DNA from: an uncultured Nitrospirota bacterium
Lineage (GTDB): Bacteria > Nitrospirota > Thermodesulfovibrionia > Thermodesulfovibrionales > JdFR-85
NCBI GenBank assembly: GCA_964539375.1
Contig: CAZIIE010000003.1
Location: 1-38,714, forward strand
Length of the DNA stretch: 38,714 nucleotides
Reading direction: 5' to 3'
Numbering within the stretch: the first letter of the stretch is position 1; each line of letters begins with the position of its first letter. The notes under the pieces are model-generated. The model saw only the letters and a program-made list of their open reading frames with translations. It did no database searches and was not told where the DNA came from. Position numbers and translations under genes: made by a program. Below are positions 5,948 to 38,714 of this stretch, in pieces.

Positions 5948-6970
5948 ATGTCTGAAAGGAGGCTGAGGTTAACAGAGAAGGTAAAGGCTGCAGGCTGAGC
6001 TGGCAAGCTTGGTCCAGCGGAGCTGGACAGCCTTATTGCCTCCTTGAAGAGTTCGCCTGAAAGTGGCGTAATAGTGCCACCTGGTGATGACGCAGGGGTG
6101 CGGCTTGTTGATGAGGAGCAAGCCCTTGTGGAGACCGTTGATGTTATAACACCTCTGGTGGATACACCCTATCTTTTTGGAAGGATAGCTGCTGCTAACT
6201 CACTGAGTGATATCTACGCAATGGGTGGAAGGCCCTTTACTGCCCTTTCTATACTGGGCTACCCCTCCTGTGATTATCCGGTTGAGGTTATAAAAGAGAT
6301 AATTGAAGGGGCAAACCATACCCTTAAAGAGGCAGGGGTTAGTCTGCTTGGTGGACACTGTTTTGAGGACACAGAGATAAAGTTTGGTCTTTCTGTAAGT
6401 GGATTTATTAACAGGGATTTTATACTGAGGGTAAACACACCCAGAGAGGGCAACATCCTTGTACTTACAAAGCCTGTTGGCACAGGCGTGTTGACCACTG
6501 CGCTTAAAGGGGAAAGGGTAGGTGAGGATGATTTAAAGGAGGTTATCACCTCAATGTGCATGCTTAATAACAGGGCATCTGAGGCTGCATTAAAGGCAGG
6601 GGCTACAGCCTGCACTGACCTTACAGGTTTTGGACTGCTTGGGCATGCCTCTAATATGTTGAGCTCTGGAGGGCTTGACCTGGAGATAGACTCAAAAAGA
6701 GTGCCCCTTTTTGAGGGGGTTATGGATTTTGCTGAAAGGGGAATGATTCCTGAAGGGGCTTACAGAAACAGACAGTTTTATTCAGAGCGTGTCCAGTTTG
6801 AAGACACTGTTGATGAGACAATGAGGCTTGTGCTCTTTGACCCCCAGACCTCGGGTGGACTCCTTATAGCCCTGAATGAAGAGAACCTGGACCTGTTTAA
6901 AGCGGAGCTCCTTCAATGCTGGGTAATTGGAAGGTTTAAAGCAGGAAAGGGAAAAATCAGGGTTTTTTAA
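5948..6970 (+). CDS. selD: Selenophosphate synthetase SelD, selenocysteine-containing (in-frame TGA at 5996-5998 = residue 17)
   Basis: The frame of the track ORF (6044..6970) extends upstream to ATG 5948, giving MSERRLRLTEKVKAAG-U-AGKLGPAELD. This matches the E. coli SelD N-terminus [23 protein letters not shown], with U at Cys17 and K at Lys20. The remainder is AIR-synthase-like (GDDAGV, SDIYAMGG, DLTGFGLLGH). Confidence 0.85.
5999..6026 (+). promoter_or_regulatory. Candidate bacterial SECIS hairpin for selD
   Basis: Immediately 3' of the TGA: GCTGG-caagcttggt-CCAGC (5999-6018, loop contains GGU). An alternative hairpin is CCAGC-gga-GCTGG (6014-6026). Confidence 0.4.
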
Positions 6971-14293: not shown

Positions 14294-14322
14294 TTTAAAT
14301 TTGGTAGATTATGTGGTATAAT
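14294..14322 (+). promoter_or_regulatory. Extended -10 promoter (TGGTATAAT) for the 14439 operon
   Basis: TG at 14314-14315, TATAAT at 14317-14322, weak -35 TTTAAA 17 nt upstream. About 110-nt leader ending in an AAAGGAGG SD. Confidence 0.45.
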
Positions 14323-14438: not shown

Positions 14439-14870
14439 ATGGGATTTCTTGACAAACTTAAAAGGGACATTAAAAAGGGGATTGACGAGGGTCTTGAGGC
14501 CCTAAAGGAAAGCACCGAGGTTCTTAAATCAAGGGCTGAACATGTTACTGAGGATTTAAAGAGCAAGGTGAAGGTCTTTGAGTTGAAGCAGAAGATACAG
14601 GCTCAGCTTACAGAGCTTGGTGGGCTGGTCTATGAGATTAGCGGTGACAAGAGGAAAAATCCGATGAGGGATGAGAAGGTTCAGAAGGTGCTTCAGAGGA
14701 TAAACAGGATGCAGGAACAGGTGGATAAGCTTGAAGGTAAGATAAAGGAGGCTGTAAAGAAGGCCAAGAAATCCCCCAGAAAGACCGCTTCAAAGGCAAA
14801 GAAGAAAACAGCTACAAAGGCTTCAAAGGGTGTGGCTAAAAAGAAGTCGGCAGCTTCAAAGGGAAAATAG
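14439..14870 (+). CDS. Coiled-coil protein with a histone-H1/AlgP-like Lys/Ala-rich C-terminal tail, 143 aa
   Basis: Strong SD. Helical N-terminal 100 aa. C-terminus KKAKKSPRKTASKAKKKTATKASKGVAKKKSAASKGK. Confidence 0.6.
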   Translation: MGFLDKLKRDIKKGIDEGLEALKESTEVLKSRAEHVTEDLKSKVKVFELKQKIQAQLTELGGLVYEISGDKRKNPMRDEKVQKVLQRINRMQEQVDKLEGKIKEAVKKAKKSPRKTASKAKKKTATKASKGVAKKKSAASKGK

Positions 14871-14873
14871 AAA

Positions 14874-15110
14874 ATGAAAAAGATAACCCTTTATTCTTCA
14901 CCAACCTGACCTGACTGCCAGGCCTGTAAGGCCTATCTGAAAGAGAGGAGTATAGCCTTTGTTAATAAGGACATATCTACCGATGCCCAGGCAAGGAAAG
15001 AACTTGAGACAAAATATGGAAGGCTTGCAACTCCAACAATTGTGATAGATGAGAAGGTCTTTGTGGGATTTAAGGAAAACCTTAAGGAAATAGAGAGACT
15101 TATTGGTTAG
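14874..15110 (+). CDS. Glutaredoxin-like (YruB/NrdH-like) selenoprotein, 78 aa, in-frame TGA at 14907-14909 (U-P-D-C redox motif)
   Basis: Hand translation gives MKKITLYSSPT-U-PDCQACKAYLKERSIAFVNKDISTDAQARKELETKYGRLATPTIVIDEKVFVGFKENLKEIERLIG*. This is a classic small Grx fold pattern (TLYS.P.CP.C..AK.YL, ATPTIVID, VGF) with TGA in place of the first Cys. ATG lies 3 nt after the upstream stop. The track shows only an antisense ORF here. Confidence 0.8.
14920..14934 (+). promoter_or_regulatory. Candidate bSECIS hairpin for the Grx-like selenoprotein
   Basis: AGGCCT-GTA-AGGCCT, 11 nt after the TGA. The apical region UGUAA contains GU. Confidence 0.35.
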
Positions 15111-15124
15111 TTTATTTTGAATAT

Positions 15125-15159
15125 AAAGAAAGCCCTGCAGGAAGCAGGGCTTTCTTTTT
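15125..15159. terminator. Bidirectional intrinsic terminator between the Grx-like gene and the ferredoxin gene
   Basis: 14-bp stem AAAGAAAGCCCTGC-aggaa-GCAGGGCTTTCTTT, followed by TTT on the plus strand and by a T-rich run on the minus strand. Confidence 0.65.
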
Positions 15160-15163
15160 CTCC

Positions 15164-15367
<204 letters not shown>

Positions 15368-32395: not shown

Positions 32396-34513
32396 ATGGG
32401 ATTTCTTGAATATATAAAAAGAGACTTTCAGGCCGTCTTCGAGCGTGACCCTGCTGCAAGAAGCAAGCTGGAGGTCCTTTTTACCTATCCTGGCTTTCAT
32501 GCAATAGTTCTTCACCGAATAAGCCATGCCCTTTACAAAGCAGGAGTGCCCTTTATCCCGAGGCTCCTTTCTCACATCAGCAGACTTTTAACAGGTATAG
32601 AGATTCATCCTGCAGCAAGGATTGGACCTGGTTTCTTTATTGACCACGGCATGGGAGTGGTTATTGGAGAGACCACCGAGATAGGTGAGAACTGTCTTCT
32701 CTACCAGGGCGTAACCCTCGGGGGTACTGGAAAGGAGAAGGGGAAACGCCATCCGACCCTCGGAAACAATGTGGTGGTGGGTGCAGGGGCAAAGGTGCTC
32801 GGTGCCATAAGGATAGGGGATTATGTTAAGATAGGTGCCAATGCTGTGGTTTTGAGGTCAGTGCCTGACTACAGCATAGTGGTTGGAGTGCCAGGCAGGG
32901 TAATTAAGAGGAAGGTCTTTAGGGTTACTGACCTTGGTGTGGAGGAAGCCCTTGACCACATTCATATGCCTGACCCGATAGAGGAGAAGTTCAGGGCACT
33001 TGAGGGGCACATTGCTCAGCTTGAAAGAAAGATAGAGAAGCTTGAAGGTAAGGGAGGAAAGATGAAGATCTACAACACCATGAGCCGAAAAAAGGAAGAG
33101 TTTGTTCCTGTTGAAGAGGGTAAGGTAAAGATATACGCCTGTGGTGTTACGGTCTATGACCTCTGCCATATTGGACATGCAAGAAGTGCGGTTGTCTTTG
33201 ATGTTATAAGAAGGTATTTCCTTTACAGAGGTTACGATGTAACCTACATAAGAAACTTCACCGATATTGATGACAAGATTATAAAAAGGGCAAATGAAGA
33301 GGGTATTCCCTGGCATGAGGTGGCAAGAAAATACACCGAGGAGTATTACCGTGACATGGATGCCCTTGGGATTGGAAGGGCGGATATTGAGCCGAAAGCA
33401 ACCCAGTACATTAATGAAATGATAGATATGATAAAGGGGCTTATTGAAAAGGGCTATGCCTATGTGGTTGATGGAGATGTGTTTTTTTCAGTTGACCGGT
33501 TTAAAGAGTATGGAAAGCTCTCAAAACGTTCAATGGATGAGTTGAAGGCTGGTGCAAGGGTAGAGGTTGATACCAGAAAGAGAAACCCTCTGGATTTTGC
33601 CCTCTGGAAATCCTCCAAAGAGGGTGAGCCATCCTGGGAAAGCCCCTGGGGACCTGGAAGACCTGGCTGGCATATAGAGTGCTCGGTGATGAGCATGAAA
33701 CACCTGGGCGAGACCTTTGACATCCATGGTGGTGGTGCAGACCTGATATTCCCCCATCATGAAAACGAGATAGCCCAGTCTGAGGCGTTCACTGGAAAGC
33801 CCTTTGCCCGTTACTGGGTGCATAATGGCTTTATCACCATTGCAAAGGAGAAGATGTCCAAGTCCCTGGGTAACTTCTTTACCATAAGGGATATCCTTGA
33901 TAAATTTGACCCTGAAGTGGTGAGGATATTTTTATTATCCACCCACTATCGTAGCCCAATAGAGTTTTCTGAAGAGCAGCTGAGAGAGACAGAGGCTGGT
34001 GTGGACAGGTTTTACTCCACGGTTATGAGAGTTGAGGGCTATCTTCAGAGGATGTCAAAGAAACAGAGGGAGGTACCTGAGCAGAAGAGGATGGAGGAGC
34101 TTATCGCCTCATTCAGAAAGAGGTTTGAGGAGGCGATGGATGACGACTTTAACACAGCCCTTGCCATTGGGCACATCTTTGAGATGATAAAGGAGATAAA
34201 CCGATACCTTGATTCAAAACCCTCGGGGCAGAAGGCAGAAGAGACGATAAACAGGGCAATGGATGAGCTCAGGGAGGTCTGCCAGGTGCTTAACATCTTT
34301 CAGAGAAGCCCTAAACAGTGGCACCTCTCTTTGCTTAAGACCAGAAAAATCAACATCACCGAGGAAGAGATTAACAGTTTGATAGCCCAGAGGCAGGAGG
34401 CAAGGAAGAACAAAGACTGGCAGAAGGCTGATGCTATAAGGGATGAGTTACTTCAGAAGGGCATAGTGCTTGAGGATACCCTCCAGGGAACTGTCTGGAG
34501 GGTCAAGATATAA
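32396..34513 (+). CDS. In-frame fusion: serine O-acetyltransferase (aa 1-222) joined to cysteinyl-tRNA synthetase (aa 223-705)
   Basis: N-terminus: AVFERDPAARS plus hexapeptide repeats and LDHIHMPDP (CysE). From ATG 33062: MKIYNTMSRKKEEF, HIGH (CHIGHARS), KMSKS (CysS). No stop between the two. GGGAGG (33052-33057) lies 4 nt before the internal ATG. Confidence 0.85.
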   Translation: MGFLEYIKRDFQAVFERDPAARSKLEVLFTYPGFHAIVLHRISHALYKAGVPFIPRLLSHISRLLTGIEIHPAARIGPGFFIDHGMGVVIGETTEIGENCLLYQGVTLGGTGKEKGKRHPTLGNNVVVGAGAKVLGAIRIGDYVKIGANAVVLRSVPDYSIVVGVPGRVIKRKVFRVTDLGVEEALDHIHMPDPIEEKFRALEGHIAQLERKIEKLEGKGGKMKIYNTMSRKKEEFVPVEEGKVKIYACGVTVYDLCHIGHARSAVVFDVIRRYFLYRGYDVTYIRNFTDIDDKIIKRANEEGIPWHEVARKYTEEYYRDMDALGIGRADIEPKATQYINEMIDMIKGLIEKGYAYVVDGDVFFSVDRFKEYGKLSKRSMDELKAGARVEVDTRKRNPLDFALWKSSKEGEPSWESPWGPGRPGWHIECSVMSMKHLGETFDIHGGGADLIFPHHENEIAQSEAFTGKPFARYWVHNGFITIAKEKMSKSLGNFFTIRDILDKFDPEVVRIFLLSTHYRSPIEFSEEQLRETEAGVDRFYSTVMRVEGYLQRMSKKQREVPEQKRMEELIASFRKRFEEAMDDDFNTALAIGHIFEMIKEINRYLDSKPSGQKAEETINRAMDELREVCQVLNIFQRSPKQWHLSLLKTRKINITEEEINSLIAQRQEARKNKDWQKADAIRDELLQKGIVLEDTLQGTVWRVKI

Positions 34514-36182: not shown

Positions 36183-37019
36183 TTAAAGTATAAGGGAGTC
36201 TTTGTCTTTTATATTGTCCTCCACCTCTTTAAATACCTCTAAAAGGTCCTCACTGTTTAGCCCCAGGGCTGACCAGGTGGCTTCATCAATGCTATGGGCA
36301 TAGGGGTCTCCACTGAAGCCAAAACCCATCATCTTGATGATGTTTTCCGAAAGCATTACTATTGAAACAGTCTTCTTAAAGCCTCTGGAAGACAGAGGTG
36401 CATGATGAAAGGCTACAGAGTCTATCAGTTCTTCTGGAAAGTTCCACTTTGTAGTAAGCCATCTTCCAGCCTGGCTGTGGGTAATGCCGAAGACCTCCTT
36501 TTCAGCATCAACTATATAAAGCTCCCTGTCCCTGGCAATATCAAGGGCTTTTCTGTACTGTTCGGGAAAGCAAAGACTGAGCGCCACTTTTCCAATATCG
36601 TGTATAAGACCTGCCACTGATATATCATCGGTATTTTTCAACCCGAGCCTTTTTGCAACTGCTCTTGATGTAATAGCTGTACCAATAGAGTGTTCCCAGA
36701 GCCCGAGCATGCTCTGCTGCATCATGTCAAAGATGGAGATGCCCAGGAGCATCCCCTTAACTGCAGAAAGCCCGATTAACATCAGAGCCTGATGCACTGA
36801 TGATATCCTTCCCGGGAAACCGTATATTGGAGAGTTCACTATCTTTAGCACCTTTGCTGAGATTGACTGGTCCTGACTGATAAACTCACCTATCCTCTTA
36901 AGCGAAATGTCTTCGGAATCAATAAGACTCAGGATTTTAGTGACCACAGGTGGAATTGAGGGGAGTGTGCTTAGCCCCTCAATCTTTTTTCTTATGGTGG
37001 TTATGTCAGGGCTATTCAT
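36183..37019 (-). CDS. HDOD-domain signalling protein, 278 aa
   Basis: LPSIPPVVTKILSLI start, HDIGK, and overall HDOD architecture. Confidence 0.8.
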   Translation of the reverse strand: MNSPDITTIRKKIEGLSTLPSIPPVVTKILSLIDSEDISLKRIGEFISQDQSISAKVLKIVNSPIYGFPGRISSVHQALMLIGLSAVKGMLLGISIFDMMQQSMLGLWEHSIGTAITSRAVAKRLGLKNTDDISVAGLIHDIGKVALSLCFPEQYRKALDIARDRELYIVDAEKEVFGITHSQAGRWLTTKWNFPEELIDSVAFHHAPLSSRGFKKTVSIVMLSENIIKMMGFGFSGDPYAHSIDEATWSALGLNSEDLLEVFKEVEDNIKDKDSLIL

Positions 37020-37308
37020 AGATTGCTTCTATATGTTTTAAAAGGGTATCTCGGATGGTCTGCATCACGGTATTCATTTCTGCTTTACTAAGGGCCTGCT
37101 CAACCTTCTTGAGATAAAGTTCCTTTGACATCCTCGGTTCCGAGTGGCCCTCTACAAAAATAAAATCAACCTGTAGCCCTTTAAGCCTTGAAATCATCCT
37201 TTCATCAAGCTCAGCACCCTGAGGGAAAAGCACAGCACCAGAGGGGTTTGTCACATCTCTGGCAAGCACCATCCCTGACTCAGCACTATCTATCGGTATC
37301 TTCCTCAT
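37012..37308 (-). CDS. Small hypothetical protein (98 aa) co-transcribed with the HDOD gene
   Basis: The GMVLARDV..G..L...G..L...I..L pattern resembles modules I recall at the N-termini of HD-type signalling proteins. 8-nt overlap with the HDOD gene. Confidence 0.55.
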   Translation of the reverse strand: MRKIPIDSAESGMVLARDVTNPSGAVLFPQGAELDERMISRLKGLQVDFIFVEGHSEPRMSKELYLKKVEQALSKAEMNTVMQTIRDTLLKHIEAIYE

Positions 37309-37450
37309 TTAACAAAATTGCCCTTCCAGGTTCAGGCAAACATACTGGACAGTAGTTTTTTCCCTGCTCTAAAAGGCAGTCATGTCCACAGCAATCAAGA
37401 CATATACACTCATCTAAAGAAAAACCACAAACCTTACATCTGTCAGACAT
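37286..37450 (-). CDS. Unlisted Cys-rich small ORF, 54 aa (MSDRCKVCGFSLDECICLDCCGHDCLLEQGKNYCPVCLPEPGRAILLNEEDTDR)
   Basis: Hand-translated. 9 Cys, including CxxC at both ends (zinc-ribbon-like). Overlaps the next gene by 23 nt. No obvious SD. Confidence 0.35.
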   Translation of the reverse strand: MSDRCKVCGFSLDECICLDCCGHDCLLEQGKNYCPVCLPEPGRAILLNEEDTDR

Positions 37451-37921: not shown

Positions 37922-37958
37922 CCACCTTAGTTCCACTTACGAAGTGGAACTAAGGTGG
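37922..37958. repeat. Perfect 16-bp-stem hairpin, copy 2, immediately 3' of the formate-dehydrogenase-like gene
   Basis: CCACCTTAGTTCCACT-tacga-AGTGGAACTAAGGTGG. It differs from copy 1 at two stem positions, both compensated on the other arm. Confidence 0.8.
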
Positions 37959-37964
37959 TATTGG

Positions 37965-38714
37965 TTAGTGGGAGGGCTCTATCTTTACAGGGGTAGGATG
38001 GGCTGTGCCTGTTTTGGGGCAAGAAACAAGGCTGTTTACCCTTGCATGGGCAAAATGGACAGGCACAAAGAGCATCCCCTCTGGTATCTCATCGGAGACC
38101 CTTGCCTTAATAAAGACCTCTGAAAGGGGTGATGTTATCTTTATGAACTCACCGTCAGAGATGTTGTATTTCTTTGCATCTTCAGGGCTTATCTGCACAA
38201 AGGCATCGGAAAGGACATGACTGAGGCTTTTTGACATCACACTGAGTGCACCTGAGTGCTGCATAATGTTACCTGTGACCATAAGGATTGGGTATTGCTG
38301 GTTGGTAAACTCAAATTGAGGCTGAGTTACAGGGCGATAACGCCATTTCTGTTGGCCTCGGTCAACCTCAATGGAGGCTATCTCCTCTCTGAGGGTGTTC
38401 AGCTCAATCACACCAAGGTCGTGTTCCATTACACGGGCAAGATTGCGAAGTATCTGCCAGTCAGGAACTGCATCGCCTGCAGGTGATACAACCTTTGGAA
38501 AGGGCTGCGGTATACCCTGCGAGTTAATAAAGGTGCCTTCCTTTTCTGACCAGGCAGCTGCTGGAAGGACAACATCGGCAAGCTTTGCTGTTTCTGATAG
38601 CCTGATGTCCTGAACCACCAGAAATTCCAGCCCTTCAAGGTTTTCTTTTATAGTGTTAGCCTCGGGCATTGTAACAACCGGGTCTTCCCCCATCACATAT
38701 AGGGCCTTCAGAGA
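37965..38714 (-). CDS. Molybdopterin oxidoreductase, C-terminal part (formate dehydrogenase alpha / NuoG-like); 5' end outside the window
   Basis: The frame stays open to the window edge (SLKALYVMGEDPVV...). FLVVQDI, VVLPAAAW.EKEGTF, and a C-terminal molydopterin dinucleotide-binding barrel (ISPEDAKKYNISDGEFIKITS). Confidence 0.8.
   Translation of the reverse strand, partial: SLKALYVMGEDPVVTMPEANTIKENLEGLEFLVVQDIRLSETAKLADVVLPAAAWSEKEGTFINSQGIPQPFPKVVSPAGDAVPDWQILRNLARVMEHDLGVIELNTLREEIASIEVDRGQQKWRYRPVTQPQFEFTNQQYPILMVTGNIMQHSGALSVMSKSLSHVLSDAFVQISPEDAKKYNISDGEFIKITSPLSEVFIKARVSDEIPEGMLFVPVHFAHARVNSLVSCPKTGTAHPTPVKIEPSH

Follow-up and report, generated by a model that had tools for sequence, protein, structure and literature searches.

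The 38,714 nt stretch of uncultured Nitrospirota DNA analysed here (contig CAZIIE010000003.1, which we refer to as the window) carries at its centre of interest the genes atpA-atpH-atpF-atpF′ (−), a gene for a Lys-rich coiled-coil protein (+, the partner), a small glutaredoxin (Grx)-like gene (+), a ferredoxin gene (−) and copA (+), in that order. The Grx-like gene very probably encodes an unannotated selenoprotein, recoded at an in-frame UGA, with a U-P-D-C active site and a bacterial selenocysteine insertion sequence (SECIS) downstream of the UGA, in an organism which uses selenocysteine (Sec, U). Read directly from the plus strand, the frame runs from the ATG at 14874 to a TAG at 15108-15110 and holds 78 sense codons with one in-frame TGA (14907-14909), as an initial annotation of this DNA had proposed. 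The product begins MKKITLYSSPT-U-PDCQACKAYL...ATPTIVIDEKVFVGF..., reads in full MKKITLYSSPT-U-PDCQACKAYLKERSIAFVNKDISTDAQARKELETKYGRLATPTIVIDEKVFVGFKENLKEIERLIG and ends in ERLIG directly before the TAG, with no second UGA. Alignment to Cys-containing orthologues and to the clostridial selenoprotein cGrx1 places the TGA at the first Cys of a CPxC motif, and the likeness to Grx continues past it, with downstream codons conserved throughout and a Pfam match that spans the TGA, both of which had been claimed beforehand. Mechanical open-reading frame (ORF) finding calls only an antisense ORF in this region, as also stated previously; the antisense ORFs at related loci differ much in extent (68 and 53 aa), and we therefore treated it as spurious and rejected it as a real gene. 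A scan of the window for ORFs split by a single TGA yielded two credible cases, the Grx gene and selD.

As protein databases cannot contain genes that were never called, homologues of the partner were used as anchors to retrieve related loci, alongside a scan of genome contigs and a metagenome scan (10 loci); a protein-database search with Grx returned six proteins, and the partner-anchored retrieval was far richer in uncalled Sec forms. The genome-contig scan detected three close orthologues in Nitrospirota metagenome-assembled genomes (MAGs), two with TGA at the catalytic codon (L001 and L003) and one with TGC (L002), and the metagenome scan added the TGA forms L011 and L012, the distant TGA form L016 and the Cys form L010. 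The partner-anchored loci provided four further Sec forms (L020, L022, L027 and L030) and three Cys forms (L021, L025 and L026), along with four loci that have no Grx (L023, L024, L028 and L029). Counting the window, an in-frame stop stands at the catalytic codon in ten loci, the other nine being eight orthologues and one distant relative, and it is TGA in all ten, with no other lesions, whilst at least five relatives encode Cys at this position (L002/L021, L010, L025, L026, P0001, P0002 and P0004). The Sec form is absent from the gene calls of three records (L020, L022 and L027), is a truncated 64-aa call in L030, and for the window, L001 and L003 is present in the protein database only as 57-aa fragments (P0003, P0005 and P0006, respectively), which bears out the expectation that standard callers would miss it. 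The sole name from any source, “glutaredoxin family protein”, is attached to a Cys form.

A hairpin, AGGCCT-GTA-AGGCCT, follows the TGA after 10 nt, its first base being the 11th nucleotide, exactly where it had been described, and its loop lies 16 nt from the UGA. The published model of the bacterial SECIS specifies a loop of 3–9 nt with G in either of its first two positions, a stem of 4–16 bp, a UGA-to-loop distance of 16–37 nt and a minimum free energy of ≤ −7.5 kcal/mol (PMC13188914). The hairpin falls within all four criteria (3 nt loop with G first, 6 bp stem, 16 nt spacing, free energy change (dG) −7.8 kcal/mol), which supports its earlier identification as a possible SECIS; hairpins passing the criteria occur after 1.9% of random positions and after 2.4% of UGA triplets in the window. 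Besides the criteria and this background rate, we assessed synonymous sites and covariation. The evolutionary comparison gives the strongest evidence. In the four closest Sec genes (the window, L001, L003 and L020, referred to as class A) none of the five hairpin codons (CAG GCC TGT AAG GCC) varies synonymously; outside the UGA and hairpin, 38 of the 45 degenerate codons whose amino acid is conserved do so (Fisher p = 3.7e-4), and the constraint at the RNA level coincides exactly with the hairpin. In the sister Cys form (L002/L021) this site reads Q-A-L-K-T-Y and the hairpin is missing. Codon 18 (TGT, 14925-14927) gives an extra Cys in Q-A-C-K-A-Y that is found only in the class A Sec forms, and the same UGU contributes both the final base of the SECIS stem and the GU with which its loop opens, so that constraint on the RNA, and not the function of the protein, may account for Cys18.

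The remaining, more distant Sec forms (L011, L012, L022, L027, L030 and L016) share a different hairpin, which we refer to as class B, at a distance of 15 nt beyond the UGA. The consensus reads CUGAAAGA-GUU-UCUUUCAG, with GU in the apical loop of every variant (GUU, GUA or AGUUC) and compensatory changes from A-U to G-C and from C-G to G-C; 95.8% of cells are paired, against 40–65% when the 3′ partners are slid.

The use of Sec by this organism is evident from the second recoded gene. A Sec-type SelD had been reported in the same window, and we confirmed an in-frame TGA at its catalytic position (KVKAAG-U-AGKLGP); a search with the expression G[C*]G[CAS]K gave no match, since the window SelD reads G-U-A-G-K. 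Mechanical ORF finding recovers selD only as a 308-aa fragment from 6044. A SECIS-like hairpin lies at 6012-6028 (GUCCAGC-GGA-GCUGGAC) with a UGA-to-loop distance of 20 nt, and the SelD and Grx hairpins have similar G-N-A triloops. A Sec-containing SelD cannot be made without the Sec-decoding machinery, and its presence therefore implies that machinery.

With U12 written as C, the protein matches the Pfam Glutaredoxin family PF00462 over residues 4-62 (56.6 bits against a gathering cutoff of 22.9). Of the YruB/NrdH-like glutaredoxins with which the initial annotation advised comparison, the YruB family (TIGR02196) is the best NCBIfam model at 76.6 bits; this is below its trusted cutoff of 88.55, however, and NrdH-redoxin (TIGR02194) reaches only 42 bits against 85.75, so that membership of both was rejected. 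The hallmark motifs of NrdH are C-V-Q-C and W-S-G-F-R-P, in place of which the window protein has U-P-D-C and F-V-G-F-K-E. The Uxx-star models (NF041212, NF041114 and NF041211), whose name we take to denote a C-terminal U-x-x Sec motif, likewise describe selenoproteins and show a weak Grx-fold similarity (52.4 bits with NF041212, below its cutoff of 66); membership was rejected here too, the window protein having Sec at residue 12 and ending ERLIG-TAG. Because these scores fall under the cutoffs, we call the protein YruB-like or cGrx1-like, outside those equivalog families. The fold was modelled with AlphaFold on a natural Cys orthologue (P0001, 73–74% identical to the window protein), and the model is a β-α-β-α-β-β-α thioredoxin fold with a predicted local distance difference test (pLDDT) score of 82, its strands (E) and helices (H) running E4-8, H13-25, E29-33, H38-48, E55-58, E61-64 and H66-78, and the redox motif falls where helix 1 starts. 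Foldseek searches with this model matched Grx, NrdH and BC3987 structures with template modelling (TM) scores of up to 0.93, and the best sequence match among solved structures is cGrx1 (7c10, E = 7.5e-16, residues 2-77). The protein has the cis-Pro motif T53-P54, and V-G-F replaces the classical GG-x-D-D segment of the glutathione site, as it does in cGrx1 and BC3987. The gene product is thus predicted to be a dithiol-type thioredoxin-fold oxidoreductase of the glutaredoxin family with Sec as its catalytic nucleophile.

Three other explanations of the TGA were weighed against Sec insertion. If it were a true stop, the locus would be a decaying Grx pseudogene or would hold a 57-aa gene starting 3′ of the TGA, as automatic annotation has it; the public protein sets do hold such products for three of the loci, and UGA is a normal stop elsewhere in the window. 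However, the TGA is kept at one codon in ten independent loci without a second lesion, and in the five codons 5′ of the UGA (Y-S-S-P-T) the class A genes keep the amino acids whilst four of the five codons differ synonymously, a signature of protein-level selection. Conservation therefore extends to both sides of the UGA, contrary to the case, raised at the outset, in which it would end there. The start codon of the 57-aa models is also unconserved, being Met in L001 and L003 and Leu in the window (CTG), L020 and the Cys forms, and by the fold model their product would be without strand β1 and the whole active site. We rejected the truncated gene model on its unconserved start and the selection on the YSSPT codons, and consider a true stop very improbable. 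Readthrough with a residue other than Sec, by near-cognate insertion of Cys or Trp or by lineage-wide reassignment of UGA, retains a slim chance: the inserted amino acid cannot be told from sequence alone, and homologues have Cys at the UGA position. Nevertheless, UGA terminates 9 of 38 ordinary window genes, so the code is standard and genome-wide reassignment was rejected, and readthrough of this kind is also opposed by a G-first-loop hairpin at SECIS distance which is constrained at the RNA level and lost in the sister Cys form, and by the same device in SelD. An error of sequencing or assembly that put TGA in place of TGC or TGT, a doubt also voiced initially, is conceivable in that TGA is one base from the Cys codons and the window appears to be metagenome-derived; as the TGA recurs at the nine other loci, which were assembled separately and drawn from different sources (NCBI MAGs, ENA, JGI and Logan), and is accompanied by a SECIS-like hairpin every time, we regard the probability of such an error as negligible.

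Several observations count against a Sec-containing Grx and bear on how firmly it can be held. The short hairpin passes two of the criteria only at their lower limit (a spacing of 16 nt and a dG of −7.8 kcal/mol), and the 62 nt after the UGA, when folded, give no thermodynamic signal alone (z = −0.09), nor does SelD (z = −0.30); stability alone is therefore no evidence. The four class A hairpins are identical, so that their support comes from conservation and not from covariation, and the covariation in class B rests on six sequences, with 35 of 500 shuffles reaching the observed score. The structure model is that of the Cys orthologue P0001 and not of the window’s own protein. Finally, selA, selB and tRNA-Sec were not found within the 38.7 kb window; when the whole of it was scanned, no Rfam family reached its gathering threshold, and neither an ordinary tRNA nor tRNA-Sec was detected. 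In Nitrospirae, selC may lie nested within selB (PMC13188914). Set beside the conservation across the UGA, the RNA-level constraint and the recoded selD, these points leave a Sec-containing Grx as the very probable reading. The features of the locus are collected in Table 1.

Table 1 Features of the selenoprotein glutaredoxin locus and of selD in the window.
Feature	Position	Strand	Basis or remarks
selD (selenide, water dikinase), UGA-recoded at 5996-5998	5948..6970	+	TIGR00476, 337 bits
Promoter-like site 5′ of the two-gene unit, TTTAAA-17-TATAAT, TG-extended	14294..14322	+	Consensus scan, pattern match only
Partner gene, 143 aa, two long helices and a disordered Lys/Ala/Ser/Thr-rich tail	14439..14870	+	ORF list, structure model
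Putative Shine-Dalgarno-like AGGGA, 9 nt 5′ of the Grx ATG, within the end of the partner gene	14860..14864	+	Sequence reading
Selenoprotein glutaredoxin-like gene, 78 codons including Sec12, stop TAG	14874..15110	+	Direct reading, Pfam match, comparisons
Spurious antisense ORF, 89 aa, sole mechanical ORF call covering the Grx region	14898..15167	−	ORF list
UGA codon for Sec12 (U12), with which the U-P-D-C redox motif opens	14907..14909	+	Aligns with the catalytic Cys of Cys orthologues and cGrx1; TGA in nine other loci
TGC codon, resolving Cys15 of U-P-D-C	14916..14918	+	Invariant across all relatives
Bacterial SECIS hairpin, 6-bp stem AGGCCU/AGGCCU, apical loop GUA, dG −7.8 kcal/mol	14920..14934	+	Bacterial SECIS criteria, conservation
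Intrinsic terminator hairpin common to the convergent Grx (+) and ferredoxin (−) genes	15125..15157	.	14-bp stem, dG −23.9 kcal/mol; flagged in the consensus scan too

Sec-containing Grx proteins are not new in themselves. The family (PF00462, UxxC) is listed among experimentally verified prokaryotic selenoproteins (PMC13188914), and members were reported earlier from Geobacter sulfurreducens, Moorella thermoacetica, Alkaliphilus and Sargasso Sea data (PMC1794560; PMC1088965). The initial annotation, in stating that such proteins had been predicted in anaerobes, was right about the family and understated its standing; it is experimentally characterised, and the novelty here is correspondingly lower. 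The window protein resembles the family in its PF00462 domain, in Sec as the first residue of UxxC, in a SECIS within the coding sequence just downstream and in having Cys homologues. Its closest known counterpart is cGrx1 of Clostridium (Alkaliphilus) oremlandii OhILAs, a native U-P-H-C selenoprotein and proposed reductant of a selenoprotein MsrA (PMC7642778). The two share 49% identity (E = 7.5e-16; PDB 7c10, 7c12 and 7c13), both are ~80 aa with Sec first in U-P-x-C, a T/V-P cis-Pro and V-G-F after strand 4, and cGrx1 matches the fold of the Cys orthologue with TM 0.86–0.92, just behind BC3987 of Bacillus cereus (PDB 3zij and 3zit), which is the top fold match (TM 0.85–0.93, 39–40% identity). 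They differ in the motif (U-P-H-C against U-P-D-C) and in phylum (Firmicutes against Nitrospirota), and no MsrA gene lies near the window Grx, whose neighbours are the atp operon, the coiled-coil protein, the ferredoxin gene and copA. YruB and BC3987 are likewise small redoxins of ~75–80 aa without GG-x-D-D, but are Cys proteins. A term search of the prokaryotic selenoproteome literature, which was not exhaustive, found no mention of a Grx selenoprotein in Nitrospirota, and in the main text of the BSepDB paper neither Grx nor Nitrospirota is mentioned (PMC13326102).

From these comparisons a mechanism can be proposed. The partner and Grx genes would form a two-gene transcription unit which ends at the terminator hairpin. 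At UGA12, SelB-GTP carrying Sec-tRNA(Sec) would bind the SECIS hairpin, as in the standard bacterial mechanism, Sec would be inserted and translation would run on to the UAG. By homology to cGrx1 and other CxxC redoxins, U12, as a selenolate placed where helix 1 begins, would attack an oxidised thiol, disulfide or sulfenate of a client, Cys15 would resolve the mixed selenenylsulfide to leave an intramolecular Se-S bond, and this bond would be reduced by an external reductant, which may be a low-molecular-weight thiol such as glutathione or an enzyme of the thioredoxin-reductase type. We infer the binding of SelB, the chemistry, the reductant and the clients alike.

The relatives also record how the catalytic residue has changed. 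In a neighbour-joining tree (80 columns, 300 bootstraps) the class A Sec forms group with one Cys clade (96%) and a second Cys clade forms a group of its own (99%), whilst support is 0.3% for a single group of all Cys forms and 0% for one of all close Sec forms; Sec forms that bear the class B hairpin make up the deeper branches. These groupings imply at least two Sec/Cys switches within the family. The class A hairpin lies ~7 nt nearer the UGA than class B, and its loop GU comes from the UGU codon of Cys18, a site at which Leu predominates in the other relatives. The Cys forms L010 and L025 both retain a strong hairpin where the class B element lies (dG −17.1 and −12.3 kcal/mol), in L010 within 1534-1590 just after the UGU (UGCCCUCAGG-GAGUA-CCUGAGGGCA, dG −17.1 kcal/mol), which could be a fossil SECIS or could have another role. 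We would entertain, with considerable doubt, a scenario in which Sec was lost to Cys and then regained, the class A forms arising from a Cys ancestor with a new SECIS that lay nearer the UGA, by ~7 nt, than the older element of class B and was created partly through a Leu-to-Cys codon change (CUN to UGU) that provided the loop GU; Cys18 would then be a by-product of the constraint on the RNA and without a function of its own, and the hairpin of L010 and L025 a fossil SECIS. If true, the family would document in compact natural form how a SECIS within coding sequence is born, moves and decays.

The distant Sec form L016 has a context of its own. At 54-1731 of this locus the Sec Grx-like gene, with the motif Q-P-G-U-M-F-C and 39% identity, lies directly 3′ of a small gene like heavy-metal-binding (HMA) domains and a 349-aa ORF resembling MerB/organomercurial lyase (likenesses judged by eye), which suggests a selenoprotein redoxin in a mercury or organometal setting.

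Upstream of Grx, the partner gene ends in a TAG at 14868-14870, leaving the 3 nt gap to the Grx ATG that was noted before. The strong bidirectional terminator described with it is also present, a 14-bp hairpin between the convergent Grx and ferredoxin genes (z = −5.1, none of 200 shuffles as stable); the latter (15164..15352, −) encodes a 62-aa 4Fe-4S ferredoxin. The gene order from atpA to copA is stable across the related loci. In L010, L025 and L026 the Grx start and the stop of the partner share 4 nt, and elsewhere Grx follows after a gap of 0 to a few tens of nucleotides, spacing which fits co-transcription, with translational coupling possible where the genes abut. The modelled partner has helices at 3-68 and 79-110 and a disordered tail at 112-143. 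Its description as H1-tailed and nucleoid-protein-like reflected composition only: searches of Pfam and NCBIfam gave no significant family (HSBP1 alone, E = 0.008, below cutoff), and Foldseek against PDB folds gave nothing significant (best E = 0.4, generic helical hairpins). None of the ~20 homologues in the database carries a Pfam domain, their name is “hypothetical”, and those with an organism name all come from Nitrospirae MAGs or unclassified bacterial bins; the partner family is restricted to Nitrospirota.

Grx directly follows the partner in 13 of 17 partner loci, for Sec and Cys forms alike, which would suit two proteins that work as a dedicated pair, such as a complex under redox control that associates with nucleic acid or membrane. 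Against this, four of the 17 loci (L023, L024, L028 and L029) keep the partner in place beside the divergent atp operon, ferredoxin and copA without Grx, L012 has Grx without the partner, the partner has no recognisable domain or fold relative, and an alignment of 20 partner sequences shows, apart from the Met1 codon, no Cys as a redox target. A dedicated pair is therefore unlikely, and of the coupling first proposed for these genes the close spacing and co-transcription stand, whereas obligatory pairing does not. Since the partner occurs without Grx in four loci, the Grx gene has either been added as an accessory to a conserved neighbourhood or been lost from it.

Elsewhere in the window, a single 705-aa ORF at 32396-34513 (+) combines an N-terminal hexapeptide-repeat acyltransferase region, like that of serine acetyltransferases, with a complete cysteinyl-tRNA synthetase (tRNA-synt_1e, DALR_2 and CysS_C), and looks like a CysE-CysS fusion. 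Two small ORFs at 37012-37450 (−), one of 98 aa and one Cys-rich of 54 aa (C-x2-C ... C-x-C-x2-C-C ... C-P-x-C), sit in an ORF-poor stretch between an HDOD-like gene (judged by eye) and a molybdopterin enzyme gene. The latter (37965-38714, −) is the C-terminal part of a formate-dehydrogenase-like molybdopterin oxidoreductase with Molybdopterin and Molydop_binding domains, cut by the window end, such that its N-terminal region, the site of the Sec codon in FdhA, lies beyond the window; past its stop codon there is an inverted repeat of 17 nt (37922-37958), which is perfect.

What is new here is an unannotated Nitrospirota member, with it a further phylum, and a U-x-D-C variant, of a known and experimentally studied Sec-Grx family in which the clostridial cGrx1 is the only characterised protein. 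Current understanding is not overturned, and the main value of the finding is as a correction of annotation. The set of relatives, with Sec and Cys forms at 73–74% identity, two SECIS positions and a possible fossil SECIS, is useful for the study of Sec/Cys switches and of SECIS evolution. Gene callers drop or shorten Grx in every Sec genome examined, with the result that selenoprotein counts for Nitrospirota MAGs are too low and that metabolic reconstructions made from these MAGs lack a redox protein.

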